UHGV virus genome: UHGV-0150885
Direction: 5' to 3' (one strand)
DNA from: a virus
Length of the DNA: 57,380 bases
The notes beneath the pieces were generated by a model, which saw only the letters and a list, made by a program, of their open reading frames with translations, made no database searches and had not been told where the DNA came from. The position numbers and the translations under genes are program-made. This document shows, piece by piece, positions 11,181 to 51,611 of the stretch. The stretch's first letter is position 1. Every line of letters begins with the position of its first letter.

Positions 11181-11222
11181 TATACAAAATGGATTGACTC
11201 AACATATCACGGGGCGTATATT
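11181..11222 (+). promoter_or_regulatory. Candidate PL promoter: TATACAAAATGG box, -35 TTGACT, 17 bp, -10 TATATT
   Basis: Near-consensus sigma70 hexamers with 17-bp spacer upstream of nutL and N-like gene. Confidence 0.5.
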
Positions 11223-11267
11223 GCGAGTCAAAGGAGGGAAGGCAGTAGAAAAAAGGAAGTTTGAAAA

Positions 11268-11302
11268 TGCTCTTTAACAATCCGGTTGCACTGAAATGTG
11301 CA
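11268..11302 (+). promoter_or_regulatory. nutL-like site: boxA TGCTCTTTAACAA + boxB hairpin TGCAC-TGAAAT-GTGCA
   Basis: rrn-type boxA followed 7 nt later by 5-bp stem/6-nt loop hairpin, 30 bp upstream of N-like gene. Confidence 0.55.
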
Positions 11303-11332
11303 GACATAAATTTCAACTAAGGAAATAAGATT

Positions 11333-11623
11333 ATGAATGCGAAAATTACTTACGGTAACTGTGAGAGCAAACTTAACGCCCGCGCCCGCCGACGGATGAA
11401 ACGGGCAGCAGAGCAAGATGAAGGCCCGCACATACAGAAGGTTGATAGAGTGGAAAAAGCTATTCGCTTTGCAAATGAGGAAAAATGCGAACCAAATAGC
11501 GTTAAAGGACGTCGCAAGGGAGCAACAAAATGGTATCAGGAAAATGAAAGCGGCAACTACTTTCACGCAACGCAGCCGCGCCAGCTTGGGGAAAAACCCC
11601 TCGATAAAGTCCGATACCATTAA
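11333..11623 (+). CDS. N-like transcription antitermination protein
   Basis: 96 aa; N-terminal arginine-rich motif NARARRRMKRAAEQ like lambda/P22 N ARM; first gene after PL and nut. Confidence 0.6.
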   Translation: MNAKITYGNCESKLNARARRRMKRAAEQDEGPHIQKVDRVEKAIRFANEEKCEPNSVKGRRKGATKWYQENESGNYFHATQPRQLGEKPLDKVRYH

Positions 11624-11653
11624 TACATAACGTAAACAACAGGAGGTGACATT

Positions 11654-11776
11654 ATGGTTATCCAGGCGCTTCAATTCAAACTGGCGGTAGCGGAAATGCT
11701 TCACGATGCCGAAATGTGGAGCGCCGCGAATAAAGCCTTGTATGTGGTATTAACAGCGAAGGAGATTAAAGGGTGA
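11654..11776 (+). CDS. Small hypothetical protein (40 aa)
   Basis: Strong SD AGGAGGT 7 nt upstream; stop overlaps erf start (GTGA). Confidence 0.4.
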   Translation: MVIQALQFKLAVAEMLHDAEMWSAANKALYVVLTAKEIKG

Positions 11777-12414
11777 AAACAGAGCTACACAAGAAACTGT
11801 GGACGATTCAGCAGACGCTTAACGCGCCTAAGAATCAGCGTAATAACTTCGGGGGTTATAGCTATCGTTCAGCGGAGGATATTCTGGAAGCGGTTAAACC
11901 GCTACTTCAAAATGTCACACTAACGCTGAATGATGAAATTATCCTGATTGGTGAGCGTTATTACGTTAAAGCCACTGCGACATTAAGCGACGGCGAGGAC
12001 GCAATAGCGGTAACTGCTTACGCAAGGGAGGAAGAAAACAAGCGCGGTATGGATGCAAGCCAGCTAACAGGAGCAACATCAAGTTACGCGCGGAAATATG
12101 CCTTGAACGGTTTATTCTGCATAGACGACGCGAAAGACGCTGATACTGATGCTTATGCTAAACAGACAAATCAACAGCCACGCCAGCAGAAAAACCCGCC
12201 AAAACAACAACCGCAGCAGCAGAAAGCGCCACCAAATCCTGATGAAGTGTTAGCACGTTTCTGTGATGCGGCAGCGAAAGCGCCGGACGCGAACAAATTG
12301 CGCGAGATCTTCGGCAAGTGCTGGAAGCTACTGCCTAAAGATTCAGAACAACAACAAAAAGCGAAAGACGTTTATGACATTCGCTTAAAAGAGCTTAACG
12401 GGGAGATTAATTAA
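11773..12414 (+). CDS. erf: Erf-family single-strand annealing protein
   Basis: 213 aa; colinear with P22 Erf (NAPKNQ..YRSAEDILEAVKPLL, ERYYVKATAT, TGATSSYARKYALNGLF). Confidence 0.85.
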   Translation: MKTELHKKLWTIQQTLNAPKNQRNNFGGYSYRSAEDILEAVKPLLQNVTLTLNDEIILIGERYYVKATATLSDGEDAIAVTAYAREEENKRGMDASQLTGATSSYARKYALNGLFCIDDAKDADTDAYAKQTNQQPRQQKNPPKQQPQQQKAPPNPDEVLARFCDAAAKAPDANKLREIFGKCWKLLPKDSEQQQKAKDVYDIRLKELNGEIN

Positions 12415-12833
12415 TGAGTTTAAATTCAATCACGCTGGGCGGAAATATCGGAAACGACATGGAAATTCGCTACACGCAAAACGGAAAAGCGATTGGTAGT
12501 TTCTCGTTAGCTGTAACGAATGGCTACGGCGATAATAAGCGGACAATGTGGATCACTTGCCTGGTATTTGGTGAGCGTGCGGAAAAATTAGCGCCGCATA
12601 TCCGCAAGGGCGGAAAGATAGTGGTAAGCGGTCGCCTGGATGTTCGGCAATATGACCGGAACGACGGCACGAAGGGAACGGCTGTAGAAGTAGCGGTCAG
12701 TGAATTCGAATTCATGAACGTTAACCAGCAGGGCCAGCAGCAAGGCCAGCAGCAGAAAGCGCCGCCGCAGCAGCAGAATAATAACGGGAACAATCCTCCG
12801 CCGATGGACTTCGACGACGATATTCCTTTTTAG
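12414..12833 (+). CDS. ssb: Single-stranded DNA-binding protein
   Basis: 139 aa; OB-fold SSB motifs, Gln/Pro-rich tail ending DFDDDIPF. Confidence 0.85.
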   Translation: MSLNSITLGGNIGNDMEIRYTQNGKAIGSFSLAVTNGYGDNKRTMWITCLVFGERAEKLAPHIRKGGKIVVSGRLDVRQYDRNDGTKGTAVEVAVSEFEFMNVNQQGQQQGQQQKAPPQQQNNNGNNPPPMDFDDDIPF

Positions 12834-12849
12834 AATCAATAGGTTAGCG

Positions 12850-13128
12850 ATGGGTGATTATTTAAAACCGCCACCGCCGCCACGAACAAAAGAGCAAGTA
12901 TTAAAAGAAGCCCGCGATCAAATCGATCGGGGGCTTTTTTTATGTGGCACGGCAGCGGAACGAATGGCGAAAAGATTTAGTGACCTGTACGCAAAGCAAA
13001 TCTGGTTTGACAACTGGCAAGCGAGTTTTTACCCGCTGCAAAGAAAACCGGATATGCAGTGGCCTGAATATGTCGATCCACGTATGCGCAAATATCGCGG
13101 GCGTATGGGCCAGGTTATTAACGATTAA
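12850..13128 (+). CDS. Hypothetical protein (92 aa)
   Basis: ORF track; same-strand operon context. Confidence 0.5.
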   Translation: MGDYLKPPPPPRTKEQVLKEARDQIDRGLFLCGTAAERMAKRFSDLYAKQIWFDNWQASFYPLQRKPDMQWPEYVDPRMRKYRGRMGQVIND

Positions 13129-13140
13129 TGAGGTATCGAA

Positions 13141-13394
13141 TCATGACAGCTACAACATTAAGCGAAAATAACGGCAGAGGTTTTCAGAGGACTGCGGAAA
13201 GTCTTGATGATAGTGACGTCTTTATTGATTTCGGCGGCGGTAACTATGAATTCGAAACGTCTGCGGGGTGGGTGGATAAATGGCCTTTCCCTACTCGCCA
13301 GGAATTAAGTAACCGTAAATCATTTGGCGAAGACGCCGAACGTCTGGCGAATAATAAATGGCTTGATAAATTCATTGCGGAGGGTGGCAAATGA
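13141..13394 (+). CDS. Hypothetical protein (~84 aa)
   Basis: Start MTATTLSEN with GAGGTA SD. Confidence 0.5.
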
Positions 13395-13504
13395 ATCTCG
13401 CAAAAATTGCCGCATTGCTCGCGGCGGTAGCAGTGGCGGTGCTGTATCTCAGTGTTTCGCTTTATATCACGGTGGCGATCATCAAACTGATTACTAATAT
13501 GTGA
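13391..13504 (+). CDS. Tiny hydrophobic peptide (37 aa)
   Basis: MNLAKIAALLAAVAVAVLYLSVSLYITVAIIKLITNM; ATGA start/stop overlap with upstream gene. Confidence 0.4.
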   Translation: MNLAKIAALLAAVAVAVLYLSVSLYITVAIIKLITNM

Positions 13505-13512
13505 GGCCAATT

Positions 13513-13632
13513 ATGAAAGTCGGTAAGGATATTGTAAGGGTTGCGTTTTGCGTTATTTGCTTCCTGTTTACGGTTGTGTTTTGCGGCGCACTGGCGGCGG
13601 TGATTAGCTTTATTGGTAAGGGGTTAATGTGA
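13513..13632 (+). CDS. Tiny hydrophobic peptide (39 aa)
   Basis: MKVGKDIVRVAFCVICFLFTVVFCGALAAVISFIGKGLM; stop overlaps next ORF start. Confidence 0.4.
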   Translation: MKVGKDIVRVAFCVICFLFTVVFCGALAAVISFIGKGLM

Positions 13633-13904
13633 TGATGATTTGGGATGCAAAGGCGGGTGATCTCGTTGTTTTGCCTGCATATCGTAGTGATCCTGGCCTG
13701 GTCGTGCTGAATAAAACATGTAGCGATCTTGAACGACCGTTACTTGTTCAATATTTAGATGGCACGCTGATCGAGCCGCGCTACTTCGATAGTATCGTAC
13801 TAACGGCCCGCAATGTTCGTGTTAAGCCGTTCCGGGCTTATGTTGAAAACCACTGGCGGCGGTTGTTCGCTGGTCTAAATGGGATGTTCGGCGTATGGCT
13901 ATAA
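13629..13904 (+). CDS. Hypothetical protein (91 aa)
   Basis: ORF track; coupled to neighbours. Confidence 0.5.
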   Translation: MMMIWDAKAGDLVVLPAYRSDPGLVVLNKTCSDLERPLLVQYLDGTLIEPRYFDSIVLTARNVRVKPFRAYVENHWRRLFAGLNGMFGVWL

Positions 13905-14077
13905 AATTGGTGAAGGTTAAAGACCTGAAAGGCGGTGAGAAGATCCGCGCGTGGTGGGGATATGAATTTATTGCTACTGCCTTTTATTTCGGGCCAGGGG
14001 GTCAGGTAACAATATTCGATGAAGATTACGACGAGGTAGGCCAATGGCATCTTGAACAATATGTCGAGGTGTTATAA
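13895..14077 (+). CDS. Hypothetical protein (60 aa)
   Basis: ORF track. Confidence 0.45.
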   Translation: MAIKLVKVKDLKGGEKIRAWWGYEFIATAFYFGPGGQVTIFDEDYDEVGQWHLEQYVEVL

Positions 14078-14410
14078 ATGAAAATTAAATTCCACAAAGC
14101 GTATGACGCTAACACAAACAAGCTATCTCTATTCATTGAATTCGAACGCCGGATCGTGTGTGTGCCGTGGGCGCGTCGCTTCAATGATGCTGGCGGGCGG
14201 CGACAATTTGCGGTAGATATGCTGTTACGTGGCTGTGGCCTTATGCGTCCGCTATCTGATTTAAAACGAATGATGCCGGGATCGTTCGGTCAGATTGACG
14301 AAATGGAAATAAGCCCGGAAGAACTGAAACGGGAGCGTGATTTATTCCTTTCAAGCGAAGGAAACCCGTTCAATCCAGAAACTGAAATGAAATGGCATCA
14401 TCCACTATAA
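14078..14410 (+). CDS. Hypothetical protein (110 aa)
   Basis: ORF track. Confidence 0.5.
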   Translation: MKIKFHKAYDANTNKLSLFIEFERRIVCVPWARRFNDAGGRRQFAVDMLLRGCGLMRPLSDLKRMMPGSFGQIDEMEISPEELKRERDLFLSSEGNPFNPETEMKWHHPL

Positions 14411-14421
14411 GGATAAATATT

Positions 14422-15042
14422 ATGAACAATATCAAAACAGCTTATTCACTCGGCAGCGACGGCATGTTAATCACTCGCTACGCGGAGGACGCAAGTTTTC
14501 ATGAAGTGGAAACGAAGGATTATCACGAAGTATTAAAAGATATGAACGCTGGCGCGTATGACGCCGATTTAAACCTGGCGCTACAGATTGTTGATATTAT
14601 GATGGATGCATCAATCCGCGATTACGTTGATTTAAGCCTGGAAGAAAAAACAGATATTGCGCGTTATGTGTTCTGCCTTTCTTTTGTAAAACGCATGGAG
14701 GAAGAATTCGGACGCGTACCAGTACCGGAGGAAGTTGATCCGCTCGCGTTCGGAAGTGCTGTTATTTTCCCGTTAAGTAAGGATCAGTTCGGTAGTGCTT
14801 CACTGCATTGTATGCGCGAACTGATGAAAGGCATCTTTGAGGTTAAGATGTTACAGAAATTTGTTGAGGAAGGACACGAAGAAGTGAACGTTAAGGCGTT
14901 TATTCCGGTGCTTTACGGAAATTTCGTTGGCGATGATATGCGAGCTAATGAATTAGGCGTACAGGCGGCTATCGCTGTGCTTAATGATGCACGGAAAAAC
15001 GCACAGCCTATTCATGAGCCGGAAAAACGCGTACTTCATTAA
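14422..15042 (+). CDS. Hypothetical protein (~206 aa)
   Basis: ORF track; start MNNIKTAY. Confidence 0.55.
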   Translation: MNNIKTAYSLGSDGMLITRYAEDASFHEVETKDYHEVLKDMNAGAYDADLNLALQIVDIMMDASIRDYVDLSLEEKTDIARYVFCLSFVKRMEEEFGRVPVPEEVDPLAFGSAVIFPLSKDQFGSASLHCMRELMKGIFEVKMLQKFVEEGHEEVNVKAFIPVLYGNFVGDDMRANELGVQAAIAVLNDARKNAQPIHEPEKRVLH

Positions 15043-15141
15043 CAGCGTGATTGCGATCACATAAATATACATTTTGTCTTGTCCTGCTGTATCCGTTTTG
15101 TAAACTTAAATCGAAAGGTATACAGAACGGAGGGCGGGAAA

Positions 15142-15324
15142 ATGACAAACTTTGAACGTAACCACAAAAGCAAACTAAACCCGCACTTCATCATTGAGCG
15201 CACGTTAGGCGGACTATTCGCGATTCTGGTCCCGGCGGCGGCTGTAATGCTCGTTTACATGATCATTGACCTGATTATCAAAGCCTTCAACAACGGGATC
15301 TGTATGTACGCGGTTTGCTATTAG
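15142..15324 (+). CDS. Small membrane protein (60 aa)
   Basis: Start MTNFERN with GGAGGG SD; one TM helix (LGGLFAILVPAAAVMLVYMII). Confidence 0.45.
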   Translation: MTNFERNHKSKLNPHFIIERTLGGLFAILVPAAAVMLVYMIIDLIIKAFNNGICMYAVCY

Positions 15325-15328
15325 CGGG

Positions 15329-15553
15329 GTGGATATGGAAAACCAAATCATGCTGCATTGCGTAGAGGGTGGCGTAGGTCCGGGCGCTTACGTCGCCGGG
15401 CGGAAATATCCGGCAAACGAAGTGTTAAGCCACGAACAATGGCGGGAGGACGCTTATCACGTAACTGTATGGGGCGCGGAAGTCCAGGGTGTCGAGATGA
15501 TTGGTATCGAGCAATATCTTGGAAAATTCGATTATGGCTTACTGGAGGCGTGA
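15329..15553 (+). CDS. Hypothetical protein (74 aa)
   Basis: ORF track. Confidence 0.45.
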   Translation: MDMENQIMLHCVEGGVGPGAYVAGRKYPANEVLSHEQWREDAYHVTVWGAEVQGVEMIGIEQYLGKFDYGLLEA

Positions 15554-15555
15554 TT

Positions 15556-15654
15556 ATGTGGCTGATTGATTTAATCCTGGGTTGTTGGTTGTTCGCCCTG
15601 GTTGGCTTTGTTTGTTATTTCGCCTGGGAAGAAGGAAAACACAATGGACGCTGA
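15556..15654 (+). CDS. Tiny hydrophobic peptide (32 aa)
   Basis: MWLIDLILGCWLFALVGFVCYFAWEEGKHNGR; GGAGG SD. Confidence 0.35.
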   Translation: MWLIDLILGCWLFALVGFVCYFAWEEGKHNGR

Positions 15655-15733
15655 ATTGATGTTTATGGCTTGTTGCTGGGGGATCGTAATGGTCGGTTTG
15701 TTTCTCCGCTGGGTGATTGAAAAATATTTGTGA
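15644..15733 (+). CDS. Tiny hydrophobic peptide (29 aa)
   Basis: MDAELMFMACCWGIVMVGLFLRWVIEKYL; overlaps previous ORF end. Confidence 0.35.
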   Translation: MDAELMFMACCWGIVMVGLFLRWVIEKYL

Positions 15734-15741
15734 GGCTGAAT

Positions 15742-15936
15742 ATGAAAAAGGTTGGTGGCTATACATTACCGGACAACGCCAAATTAGCCGGGATTGGTTT
15801 TAGTGGCTGTTATTACTACAACAATATAGGCGATGTTTATTGCGTGCGCTTTGTCGATGGTGTACAGCATTTTCGCAGGCTACCAGATGTTGAATTGAGC
15901 AAACTTATCCGGGAGGTATCGTTACATGCGGTTTAA
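15742..15936 (+). CDS. Hypothetical protein (64 aa)
   Basis: ORF track; start MKKVGG with GAGG SD. Confidence 0.45.
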   Translation: MKKVGGYTLPDNAKLAGIGFSGCYYYNNIGDVYCVRFVDGVQHFRRLPDVELSKLIREVSLHAV

Positions 15937-16129
15937 ACATTACAGAGAATGGAAAATTCCAGAAGCAGCAACAAAGGCCGCACCTGGTAATTTTTCGGGC
16001 GTTTATTTTTACATGGATGGCAAATGGTATTTCGGCAGCAGGCCGGATCACTATTATCAGGAAATGTGTATGCCTCATGTGTGGGATATTAAAGAGCGCG
16101 TGAAAGGCGGGGTGATTGAGGACGTTTAA
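15926..16129 (+). CDS. Hypothetical protein (67 aa)
   Basis: ORF track. Confidence 0.45.
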   Translation: MRFKHYREWKIPEAATKAAPGNFSGVYFYMDGKWYFGSRPDHYYQEMCMPHVWDIKERVKGGVIEDV

Positions 16130-16366
16130 ATGTTAAGAGAACTGTTTCATTTCTTGGGGGCGTGGCTTTTAGCCGCGCTTTTTGTTTTCCTGGGGTGCAC
16201 TGTCATTATTGCTGTTTTGATTGTCGGTGCAATGTTTATCACATGGTCGCTTCCTGATATTCGACCGTGGGCGGAATTGTTTTTTGGTGTACGCGTGCTA
16301 ATCGCTTTTAGTGTTTTCATGGGTTTTTGTTGGGCTGCCGCACCTGATTGGGATGATCCGTGGTGA
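16130..16366 (+). CDS. Small membrane protein (78 aa, 2 TM helices)
   Basis: ORF track; hydrophobic throughout. Confidence 0.45.
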   Translation: MLRELFHFLGAWLLAALFVFLGCTVIIAVLIVGAMFITWSLPDIRPWAELFFGVRVLIAFSVFMGFCWAAAPDWDDPW

Positions 16367-16370
16367 TTAT

Positions 16371-16604
16371 ATGGCTTTATTCAACCTGTCAGAGCCGCAA
16401 TTTAACGCCGTTAAAACTGCTGCCCGCGCGGCGCTTTCTGCCTGCAAAGCGGAGGTAGAAAGAAACGGCTATAGCGATAAAGCCACGCGGCTGATACTCG
16501 ATAGGCATTATCGCAAGGTCGCCCCGCTAATCAGTATTGAGCGGTTTGTGTGGTTGGTGGGGTATTTAAACAACCGCTGGGGGACGGAACAGGATTATTT
16601 TTAA
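16371..16604 (+). CDS. Hypothetical protein (~77 aa)
   Basis: ORF track; start MALFNLSEPQ. Confidence 0.45.
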   Translation: MALFNLSEPQFNAVKTAARAALSACKAEVERNGYSDKATRLILDRHYRKVAPLISIERFVWLVGYLNNRWGTEQDYF

Positions 16605-16613
16605 GGGGGTATA

Positions 16614-17147
16614 ATGAAAAATGATTACGGCGGCAGCCACACGCCGAAGGAAATTAAGGATCTCTGGCAAACGCCGAAGCCCGTATTTAGAGGAATGGAT
16701 CGGGAATTCGAATTCGTCGCCGATGTGGCGGCAAACAAGGCAAACGCATTAGTTCCGCGATATATAACCGAAGAAATGAACACACTACATTATCCGTGGG
16801 GAGCGGTGGCGATGCCTGGTGAGTATGTCTGGATGAATCCACCATATTCTAATCCGGGGCCATTCGTTGATAAGGCGGCACTTGAGCACCATCAAAATCA
16901 TATCGGATGTGTAATGTTATTGCCCGCTGATATTTCTGTTAACTGGTTTATGAACGGCCTGGAAACGGCAAACGAATGTCGCTTGATCACGCGCGGGCGG
17001 CTGGCGTTTATTAATGCTGCGACTGGTAAGCCAGCGAGCGGGAACAATAAGGGTAGCTTGTTCTTGATCTGGCATCCACGATGCAGGCATGAATGTATTT
17101 TCACGCAGATAACACGTAAAGAGCTATATGCAAGAGGTGCAGAATAA
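16614..17147 (+). CDS. dam: Phage DNA N6-adenine methyltransferase (Dam-like)
   Basis: 177 aa; catalytic NPPY motif (WMNPPYS) and overall phage Dam-family layout. Confidence 0.8.
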   Translation: MKNDYGGSHTPKEIKDLWQTPKPVFRGMDREFEFVADVAANKANALVPRYITEEMNTLHYPWGAVAMPGEYVWMNPPYSNPGPFVDKAALEHHQNHIGCVMLLPADISVNWFMNGLETANECRLITRGRLAFINAATGKPASGNNKGSLFLIWHPRCRHECIFTQITRKELYARGAE

Positions 17148-17638: not shown

Positions 17639-18122
17639 CAGGTTATTAGCCTGCGTTTATGTCGCCGTTTTTGTGATCATCAATCTTATTGTTAACCATT
17701 GCGGCCCGTGGGTAATTCCAGTCACCACGGTAGCCGCTGTGTGTGTCAATATGATGATCCGTGACTTCCTGTTATATGACGGCGGCCTGAAATGGTCGGC
17801 TACAACATGCGCTATAGCTGGCGCGATCACGGTGCTGATAAATTACGACGCCGGAATGGTGGCGATCGCGTCGTTTGTCGCGGTTGTTTCCGGTGCGCTT
17901 ATTTCTGGCGGCGTTTACCGGGTTTTACCTGGTGATTTCGATTCTAAACGCTGGCCTGCAAATATAGCGTCCGCCATTGGTGATGCGTTAATTTTTCCTA
18001 CGCTATCGTTTGTGGCATTTATGCCGGAAATATCAGCTATGCAATTCATCTCAAAAATGGCAGCGGTAACGGTGATTACTATCATCATGCGCCGCTATTT
18101 TACGTTTGAGGGCAGGAAATGA
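17619..18122 (+). CDS. Integral membrane protein (~167 aa, 4-5 TM helices)
   Basis: Start MKRVTIDR; multiple hydrophobic helices. Confidence 0.5.
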   Translation: MKRVTIDRLLACVYVAVFVIINLIVNHCGPWVIPVTTVAAVCVNMMIRDFLLYDGGLKWSATTCAIAGAITVLINYDAGMVAIASFVAVVSGALISGGVYRVLPGDFDSKRWPANIASAIGDALIFPTLSFVAFMPEISAMQFISKMAAVTVITIIMRRYFTFEGRK

Positions 18123-18885: not shown

Positions 18886-18964
18886 TTTACAAAATGGCGT
18901 CATTGTGTGATGAGCGTCACATAATGGCGCTTTTCATCTTGTCCGGGCGTATCCATTTTGTATA
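18886..18964. promoter_or_regulatory. Regulatory region: inverted TTTACAAAATGG / CCATTTTGTATA boxes flanking a perfect CRP-consensus-like palindrome TGTGATGAGCGTCACA
   Basis: Palindrome at 18906-18921; boxes at 18886-18897 and 18953-18964. Confidence 0.4.
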
Positions 18965-18979
18965 CTGCAATCAAACGAA

Positions 18980-19013
18980 ATGCTCTTTAAAAACCTGGCC
19001 CCGCTGAAATGCG
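18980..19013 (+). promoter_or_regulatory. Second + strand nut-like site: boxA TGCTCTTTAAAAA + boxB hairpin CCGC-TGAAAT-GCGG
   Basis: Same boxA and identical loop TGAAAT as nutL; upstream of ninG-rusA-Q block. Confidence 0.5.
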
Positions 19014-19046
19014 GAAATATATCACCTGACAGAAGGAGAATAAATC

Positions 19047-25163: not shown

Positions 25164-25206
25164 TTTACAAAATGGCATTGTTCCGGCAGTGCCGTTTTGT
25201 TATATA
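25164..25206 (+). promoter_or_regulatory. Candidate late promoter PR' (TTTACAAAATGG box, -35 TTGTTC, 17 bp, -10 TATATA)
   Basis: Promoter-like hexamers about 175 bp upstream of tR'-like terminator and lysis genes. Confidence 0.45.
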
Positions 25207-25380
25207 TAAGTCAAGGAAAGACGGAAGGGGAGATAAGAAAATGAAACGCGAATATGTAAACACCATCAAAGGCATCGAAGCGGACCTGGCGCAAGGTTGG
25301 TGATTTGTAGCTATAAGCCGTGTTTGTATAGGTTAAACAAACGGATTAAAATATTTCCTAACAATGCGAAATTGTATTCA

Positions 25381-25405
25381 CCCGGCCCCGCGCCGGGTTT
25401 TTGCT
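25381..25405 (+). terminator. Rho-independent terminator (tR'-like) just upstream of holin
   Basis: CCCGGC-CCCGC-GCCGGG hairpin followed by TTTTTGCTTTG. Confidence 0.65.
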
Positions 25406-38337: not shown

Positions 38338-38691
38338 TTAGGCCGCGCCAGCGTTGATTCTGTTATGGATTGCGTGCCCCTTTATTTCTCCATGTCTGAA
38401 CACTTCCGCGACTTCGGGATCTTTATTTTCCGCTTTCAATGCTTCGTATTTTTCGTGTATTTTTCTTGCTTTAACTATTTCCTTGTCAAGAAATGGTATT
38501 AAGGCTTTTTGTTTACACGCCATGTCAAAAATAATTTCTTTATACCCCGTACCGTCACCGTGTCTTATGTCGTACAGGTGCGCGGCGTGAGCGCATTCAT
38601 AAATAGCCTTATCCATTTTATCGTCGGCGTGGGCGTTAAATGCAAAACCAACCAGCGCCACCATCATTACTACTTTCGCTAACCGTTTCAT
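38338..38691 (-). CDS. Secreted/periplasmic moron protein with signal peptide
   Basis: 117 aa; MKRLAKVVMMVALVGFAFNAHA signal peptide; reverse orientation inside tail operon. Confidence 0.55.
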   Translation of the reverse strand: MKRLAKVVMMVALVGFAFNAHADDKMDKAIYECAHAAHLYDIRHGDGTGYKEIIFDMACKQKALIPFLDKEIVKARKIHEKYEALKAENKDPEVAEVFRHGEIKGHAIHNRINAGAA

Positions 38692-38927: not shown

Positions 38928-38979
38928 AAAACACCCCCACTTAATTGTTTTGTTTAACTATCTTTTCCTTTGACTTCCT

Positions 38980-39021
38980 TATACAAAATGGAGTCGGTAA
39001 AGTAAAGCCATTTTGTATAAA
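38980..39021. promoter_or_regulatory. Palindromic divergent promoter unit: TATACAAAATGG -16- CCATTTTGTATA, with TATAAA/TATAAG -10 hexamers in both orientations
   Basis: Perfect 12-bp inverted repeat; each box sits 24 nt upstream of a -10-like hexamer on its strand. Confidence 0.45.
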
Positions 39022-39058
39022 ATAGAGGCACAGATCACATTTTGTATGAGGTTAAATC

Positions 39059-41723: not shown

Positions 41724-41978
41724 TCACTTATGGCAACCGCGCACGCCGCATAATTCATTGTATTTGTGGTGTTCAACAATTAACCAAACCTTTAAGTCCT
41801 GACTGTAAAGCCGCCAGTCGGGGTTAATATCCATTTTGTAGCCGTATCCATCGCGTAATTTTTTGGGGTAGGCTTCTTTTCTCAGGAAAGCGTTTAATAA
41901 AGCCTTACCTTTTTTGATGATCCGGTCCTGTGCGTTTTTCTGTGCTTTCAGGTTTTTATCAATCGCTACCAGTTTCAT
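41724..41978 (-). CDS. Moron protein (84 aa), basic, hypothetical
   Basis: ORF track. Confidence 0.5.
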   Translation of the reverse strand: MKLVAIDKNLKAQKNAQDRIIKKGKALLNAFLRKEAYPKKLRDGYGYKMDINPDWRLYSQDLKVWLIVEHHKYNELCGVRGCHK

Positions 41979-42165: not shown

Positions 42166-42205
42166 TTGGGCCTCCTTTGTTGGTACTGCTTTCTTCTTGC
42201 TTTCT

Positions 42206-42247
42206 ATATACATCTTGTTGCGTCCTGTGTGAAGCCATTTTGTAAAC
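42206..42247 (-). promoter_or_regulatory. Candidate promoter for reverse cassette 2 (TTTACAAAATGG box, 24 nt, -10 TATATA)
   Basis: Same box-to--10 spacing as the other promoter-family members. Confidence 0.45.
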
Positions 42248-42332
42248 TGGTTATAATTCTTGTGATGAATATCTCATTTTTCGCGTAGCAACGCGTAAAG
42301 ATGTACACAAAATGTAACTTATAGGGGGAAGT

Positions 42333-43443: not shown

Positions 43444-43692
43444 CTACAGGTTATCACGCAGATAATTAACGCCCTTGTCAGTGACGAATGAATGATTAAC
43501 CTGGTTTTCATCCGTCATGATGATGAATAACTTTTCCTGCAAATATTTCGCTTTCGGGTACAGCGTTAAACAGACCTGGTACAAAATCCCGCGCTCAATC
43601 AGCAAATCAATAAATTCGTGCTCATGATAACCGATAAGGCGGGCGGCTTGTTTCAACGTGTATACATAGTCTCCGTGATTACGCCGCGCCAT
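43444..43692 (-). CDS. Moron protein (82 aa), possible DNA-binding
   Basis: ORF track; YTLKQAARLIGYHEHEFIDLLIERGIL HTH-like segment. Confidence 0.5.
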   Translation of the reverse strand: MARRNHGDYVYTLKQAARLIGYHEHEFIDLLIERGILYQVCLTLYPKAKYLQEKLFIIMTDENQVNHSFVTDKGVNYLRDNL

Positions 43693-44052: not shown

Positions 44053-44270
44053 CCTACTGATCCCCGTTTTTAATCGGTTTAATCCGGTAGCCCAGGACGC
44101 GATCATCTTTTTCTGACAGGTCGAGAGCTGTTTCCAATGCGTCGCTGGGATTATCGAATTCAGCCTCAACATCACGCCCGCTACTCATAAACAAGGTTAG
44201 CCGCCATAGCTTATCGTTCATCCCGTACCCCTTTTATGCCGTTTTGTTAACTTCCCCTTCGTTTGAGTAA

Positions 44271-44309
44271 AATATACATATTGTAAAAATCGCGATCAAT
44301 CCATTTTGG
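44271..44309 (-). promoter_or_regulatory. Candidate promoter for reverse cassette 3 (CCAAAATGG box, -35 ATTGATC, 17 bp, -10 TATATT)
   Basis: Nearly identical architecture to candidate PL. Confidence 0.45.
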
Positions 44310-44353
44310 CGCGATTTAGCGTGACGCAGATCACAAAATCGAAAGGTGAGAAA

Positions 44354-45058: not shown

Positions 45059-45060
45059 TC

Positions 45061-45792
45061 ATGGCGATGGAAGACAAAATGTTGCGTTATGCCGCCGCAC
45101 ACCCGCTTGAGGAAGTATGCGGACTGGTGATAGATGATGAATATTTTTTTTCGTGCGCTAACGTGTCTGAAACGCCGTACAACAGCTTTAAGATTTCGCC
45201 GGACGATTACATCAAAGCGGACGAATTGGGCGTTATAACCGCCGTTTTCCACTCCCACGTTGATGATATTCCGGTATTGTCGGCACGGGATCGACAACAG
45301 CAAGTTATTTCCGGGCTACCCTGGTTTTTGTGTTCCGGCGGCAGGATTAAAAGATTTCGCCCGGTGGCGCACCTGTTAGGCCGTAAGTTTGTGCACGGCG
45401 TAACGGATTGTTACACGCTTTTCCGGGATGCCTATCACCTTTGTGGTGTGGATCTACCGGACTTCGAGCGCCTTGATGGCTGGTGGTTGCGCGGTGAAAA
45501 CCTGTATTTAAAAAACTTGCCGCTAAACGGGTTTTTCCAGGTTGACGCGCAAAACATCCAGCCGGGTGATGTGATTATCAGGCAACCATTTAAAGGCGCG
45601 GACCCATGTCACGCGATGGTTTACCTGGGTGATAACACGGTTTTGCATCATGACCATGCCGGACTATTGAGCCGCCGCGAGCAAATGCGGCCCGCATATG
45701 TTCGACAAACGCATTCAATATGGAGATCTGATAAATGCTCAAATTTAGATTTACGGGCAATCTTCGAAGATATTTCAGCAAGGTGTGTTTAA
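45061..45792 (+). CDS. K: Tail assembly protein K (JAB/MPN + NlpC/P60-like)
   Basis: 243 aa; AAHPLEEVCGLV and HSHVD motifs as in lambda gpK. Confidence 0.85.
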   Translation: MAMEDKMLRYAAAHPLEEVCGLVIDDEYFFSCANVSETPYNSFKISPDDYIKADELGVITAVFHSHVDDIPVLSARDRQQQVISGLPWFLCSGGRIKRFRPVAHLLGRKFVHGVTDCYTLFRDAYHLCGVDLPDFERLDGWWLRGENLYLKNLPLNGFFQVDAQNIQPGDVIIRQPFKGADPCHAMVYLGDNTVLHHDHAGLLSRREQMRPAYVRQTHSIWRSDKCSNLDLRAIFEDISARCV

Positions 45793-46265
45793 ACGTCAAT
45801 ACACCTGCGCAGGGGCTTCGCTTATTGACCGCGCAGAATCAGGAATTTAAACGGGCGTTTTTAAGTACGCCATTACGGTTACGGATTGCCGGAAAGGATT
45901 ACGACGCGAAAACCGCGCCAGCCGCCGTTAATAATGAATATCCCGACGGAACAACAATTATTGTTGCGCCAGTGGTAGAAGGTGGTATTGCAGGGATTGG
46001 GGTGGTTGGCTGGCTGTTAATTGGCCTTTCCGTTGCGAGTATTGCGTTTTCAATTTTTATGGCCCGAAACATGAAAGTGAAAACATCAGCAGAAAGTGCG
46101 CAGGATAACAGCATTACAAACAACAGTTACACCAGTGTAGAAAACAGAGTAGGGCAAGGCCGACCCGTACCAATTTTACTTGGCGAAATGAAAATCGGGT
46201 CGAACGTTGGATCGTTGGGTATTGATACAACCAACAATAAAGACGCCTTAGACGTTGTAAGTTAA
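45735..46265 (+). CDS. I: Tail assembly protein I
   Basis: 176 aa; ubiquitin-like N-domain and Gly/Ala-rich hydrophobic C-terminal region as in lambda gpI; overlaps K end. Confidence 0.8.
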   Translation: MLKFRFTGNLRRYFSKVCLNVNTPAQGLRLLTAQNQEFKRAFLSTPLRLRIAGKDYDAKTAPAAVNNEYPDGTTIIVAPVVEGGIAGIGVVGWLLIGLSVASIAFSIFMARNMKVKTSAESAQDNSITNNSYTSVENRVGQGRPVPILLGEMKIGSNVGSLGIDTTNNKDALDVVS

Positions 46266-46277
46266 TAGGGGGTTATT

Positions 46278-49200
46278 ATGGGCGGCGGCGGTGGTAAAGC
46301 AAAAACACCAACATTAATAAACGACAATTTATTTCATAAGCAATTTTACCGGGTTCTGGATATATTGAGTGAAGGGCCGATTTACGGTCCGGTCAATACC
46401 GCTGCCCCGTTAAACTGCGTAATGCTTAATGACACACCTGTTACGGATGCCGTGGGTAATACCAGTATCCCAGGCGTTAGCGTCGCCTGGCGTCCGGGTA
46501 CTGCCGACCAGTCACCGATCAACGGCTTCAACGCCATTGAATCTACGGTAATGGTTAACGCGCAGGTGAAATATGACACGCCACTGGTAAGGACGGTATC
46601 AGATCCGAACGTGACGCGCGTCCGGTTGAATATTGGCGTGGATTCACTGGTGGAAAGTGACAGCGAATCAAACCAGCATGAAACATCAGTTTTTATGGCG
46701 ATTGATGTAAAACCATCATCATCATCAATCTGGTCGGCGATTAAGGCCGTGCAAATCGGTCCGGGTAAGATTAGCGGTGAATATCTGGAATCACACATCA
46801 TTGATGCGCCGGACGAAAAACCGTTCGATATTCGCGTTCGCCGCATAACACCTGACAGCACGGGCGATCTATTGCAGAATGATACCCGCTGGAATAGCTA
46901 CAGTGAAATTATCGACGATAACTTGTCTTATCCTCACACCGCTGTAGCGGGCGCGGTGATTGATCATGACCAGTATACCGACACGCCGACACGCACTTAT
47001 CACATGCGTGGCCTGATTGTTGATGTACCGGATAACTACGATCCGGAAACGCGCACTTATTCCGGTTTATGGCTGGGCGGGATGAAACAGGTGTACACCA
47101 ATAACCCAGCGTGGATCTTCCGGTATCTGGTTAAAAACGAGCGTTTTGGCCTTGCCCGCCATGCTGGTTATATTGACGTTGACGACGGCGCATTATACAC
47201 GCTTTCCCAATACTGCGATCAGTTGGTTGACGATGGTTATGGCGGCCTTGAGCCGCGCGTGACGCTTAATGCATACATTACGGAGCAAATGAGCGCCCGC
47301 GACTTACTGGACAACATTGCCGGAATGTTCCGGGGGATTGCGTTATGGGACGGTCAAACACTTACTGTAATGCTCGATGCACCGCAAGATCCGATTGCAA
47401 CCATCACAAACGCAAACGTCGTTGATGGTGCATTCACCCGTTCAAGCATTGCGCGTGCGGAATGTTACAACGCCGTGATTGTATCCTGGACTGATCCGGA
47501 AAACGGCTGGGAGCAATCAAAAGAGTATGTAGCGGATGATGAGCTAATCGCCCGCGATGGTTACAATGAAACCACACTGGAGGCGTTCGGCTGTACATCA
47601 CGCGGGCAAGCGTACCGCGCGGGCAAATGGCTGATAGAAACAGCAAAACGCGAGCCGTCGAAATTCACGTTTAAAATGGCCCGTGACGCGATTCACTTTA
47701 CACCAGGGGATATTATCGAGATTCTCGATAATAACCGTGCTGGCGCGCGTTTAGGCGGTCGTATCGTGGCGAATAACGGGAACGTGATAACGGTTGATAA
47801 GGTTGATAGCGAGTACATTACGGCAGGCGACACCATCAGCTTGCTCGATAGCGATGGTAAATTTAAAAAACACCAGATCACCGGAGTGAATGGAAACGAG
47901 ATCACCTTAGCGGCGGCCCCGGCATGGATTCGGAACGGTACTGTATTTGCTGTATCAACCGAAGCGGCAAAACCCGTTTTATGTCGAATCACTAGCGTAG
48001 CCGAAACCGAAAATAACAGCGTATACACCATTGAGGCCGCGCAGCACGATCCGAACAAGCAAGCGGTTGTCGATGAGGGCGCAATCTTTGAGGTTAACAG
48101 CGACACGCTGAATCACTTCCGTGTACCGAACATCGAAAACCTGAAAGTGATAAACATTGGATCGGAAACAGTTCAATGCCGCGCCACCTGGGAAACTCAA
48201 ACCACTACCCGCGCATTAACCTTTGAGATCCGCATTTATGACACCGACGGGCGCGTGGTGGCGAGCTACGAAACGCAAAATTACCGGTATGACTTTTTCG
48301 GCCTTGAGTGCGGTAATTATTCGCTTGGTATTCGTGGGCGCAATGACACCGGGATGAAGGGAGCGGAAACACTGGTAGATCTTATTGTTGGTGCGCCTGC
48401 CGCGCCGACTGGTGTTAATTGGGTGCCAGGTGTTTTTCAGGCGACTGTTTACCCGATCAGCAACAGCACGCTAACGACTGATACTACTTACGAATTCTAT
48501 TACGCTGGAGAAAACCAGATTACTGACTTCTCACTGGTAACAACATCAGCGCAATTTTCCGGGCGCGGCTATCAGTGGACTTTTGGCGGGATGGCAACGG
48601 GCCACACGTATTACGTTTACGTGCGCACAAAAAACGCTTTCGGCGTATCTGACTTTATCGAAGCCAGTGGTAAGCCGTCCGAAAACTTCGAAGAAATCAC
48701 GGATGCCGTGCTGAATGAAGTTATGGAGGGTGAGCAATTTCAGGACATGATTAAAGAAACCATCGACGAGGTAACAGGCGGCTTGATGGGCGATGTGGAA
48801 GAACTGAAACAAACCACGGTAGATATTGACCAGGCTGTTACCGATCTGAAAGAATCGACCGCAGACCTGGAAGAACGCGTGAAAAACAATGAGGATGGAA
48901 TTGGAGAACATGAAAGCCAGATCAACGAAATCAGCGTCGAGTTAACTGAACAGGAAAATGAACTAATCCAGACACGCGCCAGCCTGCAAAACGCAGCTAT
49001 TGCGCTTATGAATAACTCACTGGCTAACACCAGCACGCGCACCACGTTGACGGCACAGTATAAAAACCAGAAAGCAGAAACGAAGGCGGAGATTGAGCGC
49101 ATCGACACTGTGATCGCTACAGAGAAAGAAGCGACCGCGCAGGCGCTTACGACACTCGAAAGCAAGGTCAATGACGAAATCAGCGCCAACGTAACCGAAC

Positions 49201-50255
49201 TGCAACAAACCATTGCAACGCTTGAAAGTTCGACAAGCCAGTCGATCGAAAAATTAGAAAGCCAGGTCAACGAAGATATTCAGGCAAGCATAACGGAGAT
49301 TAACCAGACGATCACCGATCTGGAATCATCCACATCTGAATCTATTAGCAACCTTGAGGCTAAAGTAGATGGTGATATATCGTCAGCAATAAGCAACATG
49401 GAGCAAGCACTCGCTACCCACGAAAAAGCCAACGCTACGCAGTTTAATAGCCTGCAAAGTCAGATTGATGAGAATGAGGCTGCAATCACTGAAACTAATC
49501 AGACGATCGCAACCAATGAACAAGCAACCGCGCAGAAGCTGGAGCAACTACAGGCGCAAATAGACGACGATGTGGCGGCAGCTATTACCGAAATGCAATC
49601 CGCGCTTGCCACCCATGAACAAGCTAATGCTACTCAGTTTGCGGAAATTAGCGCATCGCTGGAAGCAAACGAGGCGTCGATCACGGAGTGGAGCGAAGCG
49701 TTTACAACCTATAAGGAATCGACCGCCACGCAGATTGAAAGTATTACGGCGTCAATCGAGGGGCAATCGGTATCAATTGAGGAAAATAAAACCGCCATCG
49801 CTGGCCTTGAAACCGACATGTCGGCAACGTGGAGCGTTAAGATCGCCGCAGACAACAACGGCATGAAATATTTTTCCGGGATCTCGCTTGGCTTGACTGG
49901 CAGCGGTACGAGTACGCAATCGCAATGTATTTTCCTTGCTGACCGCTTTGTATTAATGACAGCGGCAAACGGCACATATACAACGCCTTTCTATGTCACA
50001 AATGGTGCAATGTATGTGCGCGAAGCGTTTATTAAAGACGCCTCAATCACTAACGCGAAAATTGGATCTTACATCCAGTCAAATAACTATGTTTCCGGTA
50101 GTACTGGCTGGAAGCTGGATAAATCCGGTACATTCGAAAACTACGGATCAGTAAGCGGTGAAGGAGCGATGAAATGGACGAACACAACAATCTCTGTCAG
50201 AGATGGAAATAGCGTGTTACGCGTCCAGATTGGGCGAATTACCGGATCATGGTAA
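46278..50255 (+). CDS. J: Host specificity protein J (central tail fibre) with coiled-coil repeat insertion
   Basis: 1325 aa; long colinear blocks with lambda J (FGCTSRGQAYRAGKWLIETAK, RVRRITPDSTGDLLQNDTRWNSYSEIID). Confidence 0.95.
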   Translation: MGGGGGKAKTPTLINDNLFHKQFYRVLDILSEGPIYGPVNTAAPLNCVMLNDTPVTDAVGNTSIPGVSVAWRPGTADQSPINGFNAIESTVMVNAQVKYDTPLVRTVSDPNVTRVRLNIGVDSLVESDSESNQHETSVFMAIDVKPSSSSIWSAIKAVQIGPGKISGEYLESHIIDAPDEKPFDIRVRRITPDSTGDLLQNDTRWNSYSEIIDDNLSYPHTAVAGAVIDHDQYTDTPTRTYHMRGLIVDVPDNYDPETRTYSGLWLGGMKQVYTNNPAWIFRYLVKNERFGLARHAGYIDVDDGALYTLSQYCDQLVDDGYGGLEPRVTLNAYITEQMSARDLLDNIAGMFRGIALWDGQTLTVMLDAPQDPIATITNANVVDGAFTRSSIARAECYNAVIVSWTDPENGWEQSKEYVADDELIARDGYNETTLEAFGCTSRGQAYRAGKWLIETAKREPSKFTFKMARDAIHFTPGDIIEILDNNRAGARLGGRIVANNGNVITVDKVDSEYITAGDTISLLDSDGKFKKHQITGVNGNEITLAAAPAWIRNGTVFAVSTEAAKPVLCRITSVAETENNSVYTIEAAQHDPNKQAVVDEGAIFEVNSDTLNHFRVPNIENLKVINIGSETVQCRATWETQTTTRALTFEIRIYDTDGRVVASYETQNYRYDFFGLECGNYSLGIRGRNDTGMKGAETLVDLIVGAPAAPTGVNWVPGVFQATVYPISNSTLTTDTTYEFYYAGENQITDFSLVTTSAQFSGRGYQWTFGGMATGHTYYVYVRTKNAFGVSDFIEASGKPSENFEEITDAVLNEVMEGEQFQDMIKETIDEVTGGLMGDVEELKQTTVDIDQAVTDLKESTADLEERVKNNEDGIGEHESQINEISVELTEQENELIQTRASLQNAAIALMNNSLANTSTRTTLTAQYKNQKAETKAEIERIDTVIATEKEATAQALTTLESKVNDEISANVTELQQTIATLESSTSQSIEKLESQVNEDIQASITEINQTITDLESSTSESISNLEAKVDGDISSAISNMEQALATHEKANATQFNSLQSQIDENEAAITETNQTIATNEQATAQKLEQLQAQIDDDVAAAITEMQSALATHEQANATQFAEISASLEANEASITEWSEAFTTYKESTATQIESITASIEGQSVSIEENKTAIAGLETDMSATWSVKIAADNNGMKYFSGISLGLTGSGTSTQSQCIFLADRFVLMTAANGTYTTPFYVTNGAMYVREAFIKDASITNAKIGSYIQSNNYVSGSTGWKLDKSGTFENYGSVSGEGAMKWTNTTISVRDGNSVLRVQIGRITGSW

Positions 50256-50262
50256 AATCAAG

Positions 50263-50292
50263 GGGCCGACTTGTTCGGCCTCAGTTTTATTA
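50263..50292 (+). terminator. Rho-independent terminator after J
   Basis: GGGGCCGA-CTTGT-TCGGCCTC hairpin + AGTTTTATT. Confidence 0.6.
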
Positions 50293-50305
50293 AGGAGGTG
50301 AAATT

Positions 50306-50617
50306 ATGGCTACTTTCGGCATAGCGACCTGGGACGCCAACGGCAATCCTAATAACTATGGAATCAAACCTTCCGTCGTGGTTGGCTATATTTCCTTGTC
50401 TTCCGGGCAAGTATCCGGCACATATTCTTTTACCGTTCCAACCGGGTGCAAATTATCTTATGGCGTGGCGCTTGATTATGGTACAACATCGTCAACGCGC
50501 AGAAAGATTAGTATTTCCGGCGGCACTGTTTCCATTTCCTCAGCAGGGGATACGGTAGGGGCTGATATATGGCCCGCATCACAATGTGACCTGATTATTT
50601 TTACGGAGATTGCATAA
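50306..50617 (+). CDS. Hypothetical tail-region protein (103 aa), MATFG family
   Basis: ORF track; N-terminus MATFGIATWDANGN paralogous to next gene. Confidence 0.5.
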   Translation: MATFGIATWDANGNPNNYGIKPSVVVGYISLSSGQVSGTYSFTVPTGCKLSYGVALDYGTTSSTRRKISISGGTVSISSAGDTVGADIWPASQCDLIIFTEIA

Positions 50618-51216
50618 TGGCTACTTTTGGCGCTTATTTACGCCTGGATAATGGCAATATTTTTGTGACGCCGGATTCTACCCCGATGTGTTTATATTCG
50701 CGGGTGGCCTTAAATTCCAGCCAGCAACAAACGATCGCTGTACCCGACGGCAAGCCTGTAATGGTATTCATCAAAAACACCGACGACACCGCCACGGGGC
50801 TTGCTTATCGCGCATCATCATCTACGGTAGTGATCCCGCCTGGTAACGGGTATGCGTATATATTCAGCATCTTCCCGCCATCGCTGCCGAGATGGGGGAT
50901 GGCTATCTGGAACGCTTCCGGGGAATTGGTACTGACCAATGAATCAAAAATATTAACCGACCTTGTTACAGTAGGCACGGCGGGATCGAGCGGGGGGATT
51001 TATATCGATCAAACATTATCAGGATCTTATGCGGTAGTGCCTCAGATATTAGGGGCCGTTGTAGGTATGGGTTCTGCAACAATATATACAGAGGCATACT
51101 ACAACGGCAGCACTACACGAATTCGCGGAAAACAGGTTGGTAGCTTGCAGCAGGCTTACAGCTACATTAACCACGGGAACGCTATCACCGCCATTAAAAC
51201 CGACGCCTATGATTAA
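50617..51216 (+). CDS. Hypothetical tail-region protein (199 aa), MATFG family
   Basis: ORF track; N-terminus MATFGAYLRLDNGN. Confidence 0.5.
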   Translation: MATFGAYLRLDNGNIFVTPDSTPMCLYSRVALNSSQQQTIAVPDGKPVMVFIKNTDDTATGLAYRASSSTVVIPPGNGYAYIFSIFPPSLPRWGMAIWNASGELVLTNESKILTDLVTVGTAGSSGGIYIDQTLSGSYAVVPQILGAVVGMGSATIYTEAYYNGSTTRIRGKQVGSLQQAYSYINHGNAITAIKTDAYD

Positions 51217-51452
51217 TTCAGTTCCGGGCAATCCGTTTTCTTGAAGTGGTCAACGCTCACCCATTGGAAATTGAACGGATACCCGGCCTTAACCATTTTG
51301 TGACCGCCAACATCTGCAACGCCAAAGACTGCAACCGCATATTCATTACCGCCAGTTTGATAGATTGCTGTACATTCACGTTTTGGCATATCAGCACAAC
51401 CAACCAGACCAGCAACCATTGCAGCGATAGCGATATTTTTTAAACCTTTCAT
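51213..51452 (-). CDS. Small lipoprotein, Cor-like candidate
   Basis: MKGLKNIAIAAMVAGLVGC lipobox; GGAGGG SD; reverse-oriented between J and tail-fibre genes. Confidence 0.6.
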   Translation of the reverse strand: MKGLKNIAIAAMVAGLVGCADMPKRECTAIYQTGGNEYAVAVFGVADVGGHKMVKAGYPFNFQWVSVDHFKKTDCPELN

Positions 51453-51611
51453 TGTCTTACCCTCCGTTGTTTCGTTGGTTGTAGTATCCATAAACCGCAT
51501 TTTTACAACATTGATGTAAATCAACAAACACATTTTGTATAAACCAGAAATGTAACATAGATCACAAAATGGTAGAATTATTCCGTTAATTAACATAATG
51601 GAGTCATTGCA

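Follow-up and report, generated by a model that had tools for sequence, protein, structure and literature searches.

In phage lambda, dimers of the CI repressor bind 17-bp pseudo-palindromes about 24 bp apart in a cooperative manner; OR2 is located at -41 and OR1 at -17 of PR, while OR2 also occupies -42 of PRM. Here, we focus on a predicted operator system of this type in the UHGV virus genome UHGV-0150885, a stretch of 57,380 nucleotides hereafter called the window, in which a short box (10-mer TACAAAATGG) recurs between genes. With a probability that we put at about 0.78, the box is the core of an operator for Rep, the CI-like immunity repressor encoded in the window, and has been copied at about ten promoter regions. 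Similarly to lambda, the repressor is homologous, the sites are pseudo-palindromic, other lineages with the same recognition helix have three operators between cro and cI, and the window operators lie at about -41 and -16/-17 of the promoter predicted to be repressed and at -42 of the repressor's own weak promoter. Unlike lambda, however, the window site measures 13 bp and differs in sequence, the repressor gene of the mEp021 phage group has the orientation of PR and diverges from PL, the gap beside it harbours two sites 35 bp apart instead of three, and the operator-promoter module is found about ten times across the genome, including the tail operon, where two operator regions flanking the repressor gene would be usual. 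The kind of system is thus the lambda one, and its novelty lies in the sequence of the operator family and, above all, in its dispersal over the genome.

Dispersed repressor sites have been described in other phages, although with repressors unrelated to Rep and with different site architectures. Phage P1 C1 reportedly has more than 17 dispersed asymmetric 17-bp operators. As in the window, a single immunity repressor there serves operons scattered over the genome, and the operators overlap promoter hexamers in various registers, but C1 is not of the CI/LexA type, and it binds an asymmetric site as a monomer, without the paired 25-bp arrangement. Mycobacteriophage L5 gp71 is said to act at 'stoperators', many short copies of the repressor site in intergenic DNA genome-wide. 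These are asymmetric, orientation-dependent, and mostly located away from promoters, whereas the window copies are of mixed orientation and mostly at fixed promoter positions; by analogy, a roadblock role is conceivable for the isolated window copies centred at 6471 and 42311, within operons. With a CI-like repressor, mixed orientation, and pseudo-palindromic sites, the window has dispersal alone in common with the stoperator and P1 types. In the Streptomyces phage phiC31, the c repressor binds conserved inverted repeats. Palindromic repressor sites are present at many early promoters in both cases, but the phiC31 repressor family is unrelated, and its sites are confined to the early region, with none at late-operon antisense cassettes.

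The first ~1165 bases of the window correspond to the E. coli chromosome beside yddH (99.8% match), and the integrase gene starts at 1340. The remainder is prophage DNA, 81-87% identical to the E. coli phages mEp021, mEp010, mEp013, mEp044, mEp515, mEp554, and MagusPhagus, and likewise to prophages in 35 complete E. coli genomes. These matches assign the window, as an E. coli prophage, to the mEp021 ("mEpimmI") group, whose prevalence in the human gut was reported by Negrete-Mendez et al. (2025, PMC11893012). These authors demonstrated that immunity is conferred by the repressor Rep021 and stated that the group's repressor "may recognise different operator sequences", but they named no operators or phage promoters, the word "promoter" being used only for the vector Ptac. 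We did not find the operator described in the literature searched, and searches with motif strings returned unrelated primers only. Integration sites named in the same study are ydaM, abgT, and mppA; since yddH is absent from this list, the window prophage may use a different integration site.

The box and its counterparts beside homologous repressors

Allowing at most one mismatch, TTTACAAAATGG is found 10 times in the window compared with 0.58 expected, a number reached in 0/100 shuffles. Almost all copies are intergenic, and they are located at 6464, 10338, 11181, 15093(-), 18886, 18953(-), 25164, 38980, 39008(-), and 42235(-). The exact 11-mer TTACAAAATGG occurs 4 times (0.07 expected), the 10-mer has 9 exact copies, and the 8-mer ACAAAATG, with 20 copies, is among the commonest 8-mers of the window. 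Orientation is mixed across copies, whereas the C and the TGG of the box are invariant. The recurrence had been noticed in a sequence-only reading of the window, and these counts place it well above chance. The coordinates given there are right within 1-2 nt, but the copy at 15093 was missed, and those listed at 44301, 51528, and 51561, although present, are degenerate (CCATTTTGG, ACATTTTGTATA, and CACAAAATGG, respectively). The perfect 12-bp inverted repeat with a 16-bp spacer that it reported is real, at 38980-39019. The full site containing the box is the 13-bp pseudo-palindrome ATACA-AAA-TG(G/T)AT.

Orthologous regions of related phages were extracted by a BLAST-based method, and the box is kept at orthologous positions in about 45 of them. 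The exact box is specific to the group, with 69 copies in the late regions of relatives (530 kb) and 0 in 867 kb of 50 other siphophages, for which the identity of the minor tail protein is 70-74%. An exact TACAAAATGG was also noticed inside the portal gene of mEp021 (L001 30125) and mEp010 (L003 31403), but not in that of the window, and is probably a coding coincidence.

With regard to the repressor, Rep (10423..11070, plus strand) has two Pfam domains, HTH_3 and S24 peptidase, and can be aligned over its length to the lambda repressor structure PDB 3bdn (E=1.5e-20), by which it is a true lambda CI homologue. Its recognition helix is GITKGGLSHWLNGRREP, its N-terminal arm reads MKTKW, and it is 92-100% identical across the mEp021 group. 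A protein search retrieved homologues at 38-56% identity that keep the helix x-G-x-x-x-HWLNGRRxP (ITKGGLSHWLNGRREP and close variants); a Rep scan of one-genome-per-species contigs gave no match. Among the homologues, a divergent mEp021-like phage (L132-134, Logan contigs), with a Rep 56% identical and an identical helix, carries many dispersed boxes, partly at other loci, including tandem boxes ahead of a Rha/ANT gene (8557 and 8596).

Most of the prophages sharing the helix are not mEp021-like, and what they visibly have in common with the window is a repressor whose recognition helix is the same. Six groups of loci, from independent prophage lineages, carry a triplet of 13-mers fitting (A/G)TACA-N3-YGTAY between cro and cI, with spacings of about 33 and 26 bp. 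The loci comprise a remnant of an Enterobacter prophage (L135), a prophage of Citrobacter whose replication module consists of DEAD-helicase and primase (L136/137), two metagenomic phages (L138 and L140), a Tatumella lambdoid prophage with the order cro-cII-O-DnaB (L139), and a Shewanella phage (L141). Several triplet sites are perfect palindromes such as ATACATTTTGTAT, with ATACA-TTT-TGTAT in L135 and L138, and sites 25-26 bp apart recur in these prophages as well. Furthermore, downstream of the repressor gene, L135 and L136 have an operator pair close by and L138 and L139 a second triplet at a greater distance, as an OL would be; in the 20-kb Citrobacter loci, box-like matches only flank the repressor gene. 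The middle operator of the Citrobacter-type triplets is ATACAAAATGG(A/T)A. Since the window site ATACAAAATGGAT, that is ATACA-AAA-TGGAT, is the same element, the box can be read as an operator of the Rep family.

The most distant homologues examined, at 38% identity, are from three viral contigs (L049-51). An exact-box scan of these contigs found none and a k-mer survey was uninformative, but a relaxed palindrome search retrieved three looser sites with similar spacing; beyond Rep, they share with the window distant HTH_36 protein matches and a few other early-region stretches. At all levels of identity from 38% to 100%, repressors that retain the HWLNGRR-type helix are accompanied by the 13-mer family. 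As a control, locus L142 encodes a homologue that is similar in its C-terminal domain while carrying a helix of the P22 C2 type; its operator repeats are of the P22 type, and the 13-mers are absent.

Promoter geometry and a model of repression

Promoters were predicted with a simple sigma-70 scoring matrix, retaining the three best per copy, and +1 was taken as 7 nt past the predicted -10, so that transcription starts and operator positions are predictions throughout. For 8 of 14 box copies, a top-three prediction has a -35-like hexamer 1-2 nt and a -10-like hexamer 23-25 nt past the box. For three copies (10340, 15093, and 18953), the best-scoring promoter is one of the opposite strand, of which the box covers the spacer and the first bases of the -10 (CCATTTTG followed by TAWACT); the leftward promoter covered by box 38982 is the one already counted for box 39008. 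The association with early promoters, with a promoter ahead of the lysis genes, and with cassette promoters, as proposed from the sequence alone, is borne out. The fixed box-to--10 distance proposed with it applies to the 8 of 14 copies, but not to the three with an opposite-strand promoter, nor to 6466 and 42306, where no plausible promoter is in register. Similarly, the TATA hexamer seen about 24 nt downstream is present, but is better read as part of a second operator about 25 bp away, whose TGTAT half starts the -10; the bases before these hexamers are typically TG (ttgTATAAA, atgTATATA, atgTATATT).

Across nine predicted promoters, namely, PL, PR, two internal early promoters, the lysis-side promoter, and those of four leftward cassettes in the tail operon, operator centres lie at -40 to -42 and at -16/-17. 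A partner matching at least 10/13 positions at 23-27 bp is found for 8 of 18 box sites, compared with 3.4% of random positions. The pairs with centres 24-25 bp apart are 15073/15097, 25171/25196, 38987/39012, 42214/42239, and 44280/44305, and this spacing of about 2.3 helical turns would fit cooperative binding.

We propose that a Rep dimer binds the 13-bp pseudo-palindrome, and that the repeated module resembles lambda PR, with one operator near -41, just overlapping the -35, and a second about 25 bp downstream near -16, over the -10. Two dimers about 25 bp apart would bind cooperatively and block RNA polymerase at both hexamers. In the lysogen, Rep would in this way silence PL, PR, the two internal early promoters, the lysis-side promoter, and the four leftward tail-region cassettes. 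The dimer over the PL -10 would also sit at -42 of P_rep, the promoter of the repressor gene, and may stimulate it as CI does at lambda PRM, while a weaker site over the P_rep -10 would limit Rep once it is abundant, in the manner of OR3. Both the binding of Rep to these sites and the direction of regulation are inferred, like the transcription starts.

Several observations weigh against this proposal. Most window copies are asymmetric (ATACA / TGGAT), with an invariant TGG half that always faces the -35, and a simple dimer operator does not account for this. The -16 sites at PR and at the lysis-side and lipoprotein promoters are weak (7-10/13), the lipoprotein promoter is in a different register in mEp021, and no fitting promoter was predicted for the isolated sites centred at 6471, 42311, and 41835. 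A single dimer at -41/-42 could be compatible with repression or with activation. In addition, a scan for single sites at 11/13 matches or more is near background (23 observed, 16 expected), and genome-wide pairs of sites fitting the degenerate 13-mer consensus are not above shuffles (8 compared with a mean of 4.8), a count that is not used as evidence here. Finally, co-occurrence with the repressor is expected for any cis element inside an immunity module, because such modules travel as units. The argument for an operator accordingly combines co-occurrence with dyad symmetry, triplet spacing, promoter overlap, and the control with the P22-type helix.

Alternative explanations and significance

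Among the options raised in the sequence-only reading, a binding site for a phage regulator such as cI is the one favoured by the evidence, and the question arises whether that regulator might be other than Rep, i.e., a Cro-like protein or early activator that switches the dispersed promoters in lytic growth, for instance the HTH_36 protein, whose gene (9861-10115, minus strand) comes first in the PL operon, or a Rha-like protein. The window encodes several other DNA-binding candidates, and a box at -41/-42 would suit a class II activator. In lambdoid phages, Cro and CI use the same operators, so shared sites are to be expected. However, the component common to the prophages with 13-mer triplets is the repressor with the conserved helix, while their first leftward gene encodes an unrelated HTH_3 Cro-type protein or something else. 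The boxes likewise persist in the divergent mEp021-like phage L132-134, where a 75-aa HTH_3 Cro-type gene (9649-9876) replaces that of the HTH_36 protein as first gene of the PL operon. A different phage regulator acting as the sole binder is therefore unlikely.

We consider still less probable that the box is a proximal subsite for the RNA polymerase alpha C-terminal domain, resembling an upstream promoter (UP) element and spread as copies of one strong ancestral promoter. It is true that the box ends 1-2 nt ahead of a -35-like hexamer in 8 of 14 copies, that the region upstream of PR is A/T-rich and conserved, and that positions -45 to -38 match 7/9 positions of the proximal UP consensus, AAAAAARNR. 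Yet the invariant C and TGG are part of no UP consensus, the same sequence lies over the -10 or spacer of opposite-strand promoters at 10340, 15093, 18953, and 38982, some copies (6466 and 42306) have no fitting promoter, and neither the dyad symmetry nor the cro-cI triplets of other prophages would follow from such a role. The least credible of the three alternatives is that the boxes are module-boundary or recombination sequences serving cassette exchange, their promoter likeness being secondary. They do cluster at the edges of variable tail-region cassettes, the DNA to the left of the conserved 38981-39047 block is highly variable, and the HNH endonuclease gene of mEp021 is inserted right by the 6471 site; but general homologous recombination needs a longer identity than 10-13 bp, there is no sign of a dedicated recombinase, and the fixed -41/-16 register, the dyad symmetry, and the repressor-side triplets elsewhere would be left without explanation. 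Repeated modules may nevertheless favour cassette exchange incidentally.

Other candidates were also considered. Comparison with the consensuses of the host factors IHF, Fis, CRP, TyrR, CpxR, OmpR, MarA (MarA box), and DnaA gave only half a Fis-like match besides the partial UP-like one, with the invariant positions unexplained, and promoters for an alternative sigma factor or of the T4-late type do not fit. At 18888/18953, inverted boxes flanking a terminator could pair at the RNA level, but the distance between such boxes is not constant (26-72 bp).

If the box is an operator of Rep, a single CI-type repressor is predicted to control directly about ten promoter regions, including antisense cassettes of the tail operon and the lysis-side promoter. 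Lambda-type phages are not known to place such cassettes and a lysis-side promoter under CI-type control. The accessory genes would then have to be re-read as off in the lysogen and on early after induction. In the sequence-only reading the cassettes were named morons, a term implying that the lysogen expresses them, whereas from the operator geometry they are predicted to be repressed in it. Tests of exclusion by the lipoprotein were carried out with plasmids only (PMC11893012) and are thus silent on its production in lysogens, so the predicted repression is not contradicted by them. A wider proposal, which we find doubtful, is that Rep acts as a prophage-wide regulator, the module having been copied to put accessory cassettes (antirepressor-like, exclusion lipoprotein) and the lysis-side promoter under immunity. 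The approximately ten clusters and the intragenic sites would perhaps be looped by repressor oligomers, silencing the whole prophage, and the leftward genes of the tail operon would be repressor-controlled early genes, not lysogen-expressed ones.

The map set out below is the first concrete prediction of operators and promoters for the mEp021 group, and the operator family (A/G)TACA-N3-YGTAY is common to prophages of several other bacterial genera. The exact coordinates of the map are open to chromatin immunoprecipitation, 5'-end mapping, and reporter assays, for which the plasmid pRep021 is an existing source of repressor.

Sites and promoters along the window

In the early region, predicted operators at 10339-10386 and 11182-11219 flank the Rep gene. 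On its upstream side, operator TTACAGAATGGTG (10339..10351, plus strand, centre 10345) lies over the PL -10, at -16, and at -42 of P_rep, and operator ATACATTTTGTGA (10374..10386, plus strand, centre 10380) lies at -51 of PL and over the P_rep -10 (TACATT, 10375-10380), an overlap like that of lambda OR3; the latter site is conserved in 47 sources. PL is predicted on the minus strand as TTGACC (10363..10358)-16-TAAACT (10341..10336), with +1 at 10329, and the weak P_rep on the plus strand as TTTTTC-17-TACATT, with +1 at 10387 and operator centres at -42 and -7. The first Rep codons (M-K-T-K-W-Y, ATGAAAACAAAATGGTAT; 10428-10440) themselves contain an operator-like AAACAAAATGGTA and then TATGACT, an arrangement similar to the PR box with its -35 (77% identity over 26 nt). 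This may be a coincidence of the coding sequence or reflect an additional site of autoregulation.

Downstream of the Rep gene, operator ATACAAAATGGAT (13/13; 11182..11194, plus strand, centre 11188) is located at -41 of PR, its last T being the first T of the -35. PR is predicted on the same strand as TTGACT (11194-11199)-17-TATATT (11217-11222), with +1 at 11229. A degenerate second operator, TCACGGGGCGTAT (11207..11219, plus strand, centre 11213), with an ACG-GGG-CGTAT dyad, lies at -16 over the -10; it is tentative because it matches only 7/13 positions of the consensus, but it is near-invariant in 46 sources, whereas the spacer just upstream varies. Further downstream, an operator-like ATACATAACGTAA was noticed at 11623-11635, after the N-like gene and before the ribosome-binding site of a small gene. 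Its sequence resembles that of the outer operator in the Citrobacter triplet, ATACATAACGTAC, and both mEp021 and mEp010 have a matching pair of sites.

The first internal early promoter, TTGTCC (15079)-16-TAAACT (15101) on the plus strand, with +1 at 15113, carries the operator pair ATACATTTTGTCT (centre 15073, -40) and ATCCGTTTTGTAA (centre 15097, -16), 24 bp apart, at 15067..15103. The second, TTGTCC (18939)-16-TATACT (18961), also rightward and with +1 at 18973, follows the terminator hairpin t4 (18896-18930), at the orthologous place of which TERM_4 is annotated in mEp021. A second 13/13 copy of ATACAAAATGGAT (18951..18963, minus strand, centre 18957) lies over its -10, at -16, and operator TTACAAAATGGCG (18887..18899, plus strand, centre 18893), at -80, abuts t4. 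The t4 stem starts with the GG of this adjoining operator and holds a perfect CRP-consensus palindrome, TGTGA-N6-TCACA (18906-18921).

Three nut sites were placed in the group by PMC11893012, including nutR2 at the orthologue of about 18981 in the window. In the window, nutL (10210-10259, minus strand), nutR1 (11266-11300, plus strand), and nutR2 (18981-19015, plus strand; boxA at 18981) consist of boxA GCTCTTTAA and a small hairpin, and each is directly downstream of a predicted operator-controlled promoter, which lends independent support to these three promoters. Being just after the predicted promoter that follows t4, nutR2 may serve that promoter, beyond read-through from PR.

In the PL operon, the isolated site TTACAAAATGGAA (6465..6477, plus strand) lies between the gene for a 372-aa protein and the helicase gene, overlaps the upstream stop codon, and is conserved in 43 sources. 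In mEp021, the HNH endonuclease gene (L001 6063-6583) is inserted directly beside the orthologous site, whereas the window and MagusPhagus lack this insertion.

On the lysis side, the operator pair TTACAAAATGGCA (centre 25171, -42) and TGCCGTTTTGTTA (centre 25196, -17), at 25165..25202 on the plus strand, is associated with the promoter TTGTTC (25178)-17-TATATA (25201), with +1 at 25213, followed by a terminator (25380-25398) and the holin gene (25421). TGCCGTTTTGTTA matches only 8/13 positions of the consensus. The sequence-only reading took this for a late promoter; a promoter ahead of the lysis genes is indeed predicted, but the label is uncertain, as an orthologue of the 25164 segment was recovered in only 3 fetched sequences and mEp021 has no exact box there.

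In the tail operon, the block with the inverted repeat (38981..39047), between a leftward gene for a 117-aa protein (38338-38691) and the tape-measure gene, holds three operators with centres at 38987, 39012, and 39041, 25 and 29 bp apart. The operator block is conserved, whereas the DNA on its left is variable. The cassette 1 promoter, TTTACT-17-TATAAG on the minus strand, with +1 at 38971, has these centres at -16, -41, and -70, respectively. Cassette 2, whose genes extend leftward from 41978, has the minus-strand promoter TTCACA-17-TATATA (+1 at 42198), with the pair CAACAAGATGTAT (centre 42214, -16) and TTACAAAATGGCT (centre 42239, -41) at 42208..42245. A single operator-like site, ACACAAAATGTAA (42305..42317, plus strand), lies 16 nt ahead of the start of the minor-tail gene, and another, CTACAAAATGGAT (12/13; 41829..41841, minus strand), is inside a cassette 2 open reading frame; many relatives have an exact box at the orthologous position of the latter.

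Cassette 3 includes an ANT/KilAC antirepressor-like gene (43444-43692). Its predicted promoter, TTGATC (44299..44294)-17-TATATT (44276..44271) on the minus strand, with +1 at 44264, has the operator pair TTACAATATGTAT (centre 44280, -16) and CGCCAAAATGGAT (centre 44305, -41) at 44274..44311, and a weaker operator-like site is located nearby, at 44237-44249. The last cluster (51503..51574) separates the lipoprotein gene (leftward, ~51213-51452) from the tail-fibre gene (rightward, 51612) and comprises ACACATTTTGTAT (centre 51534), TCACAAAATGGTA (centre 51568), and a weak site (centre 51509). The promoter of the lipoprotein cassette is tentatively assigned to TTTGTT-17-TAAAAA on the minus strand, with +1 at about 51493 and centres at -41, -75, and -16, respectively. 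In mEp021, the perfect palindrome ATACATTTTGTAT is found at the same place of the lipoprotein locus.

With regard to the neighbouring tail genes, the host-specificity J-like protein (46278-50255) and the second tail-fibre protein (51612-55589) both count 1325 aa with no detectable sequence similarity, an equality that is a coincidence. The commonest 8-mers of the window, GCCGCCGC and GGCGGCGG, with about 30 copies, may correspond to repeat units of tail-fibre proteins.

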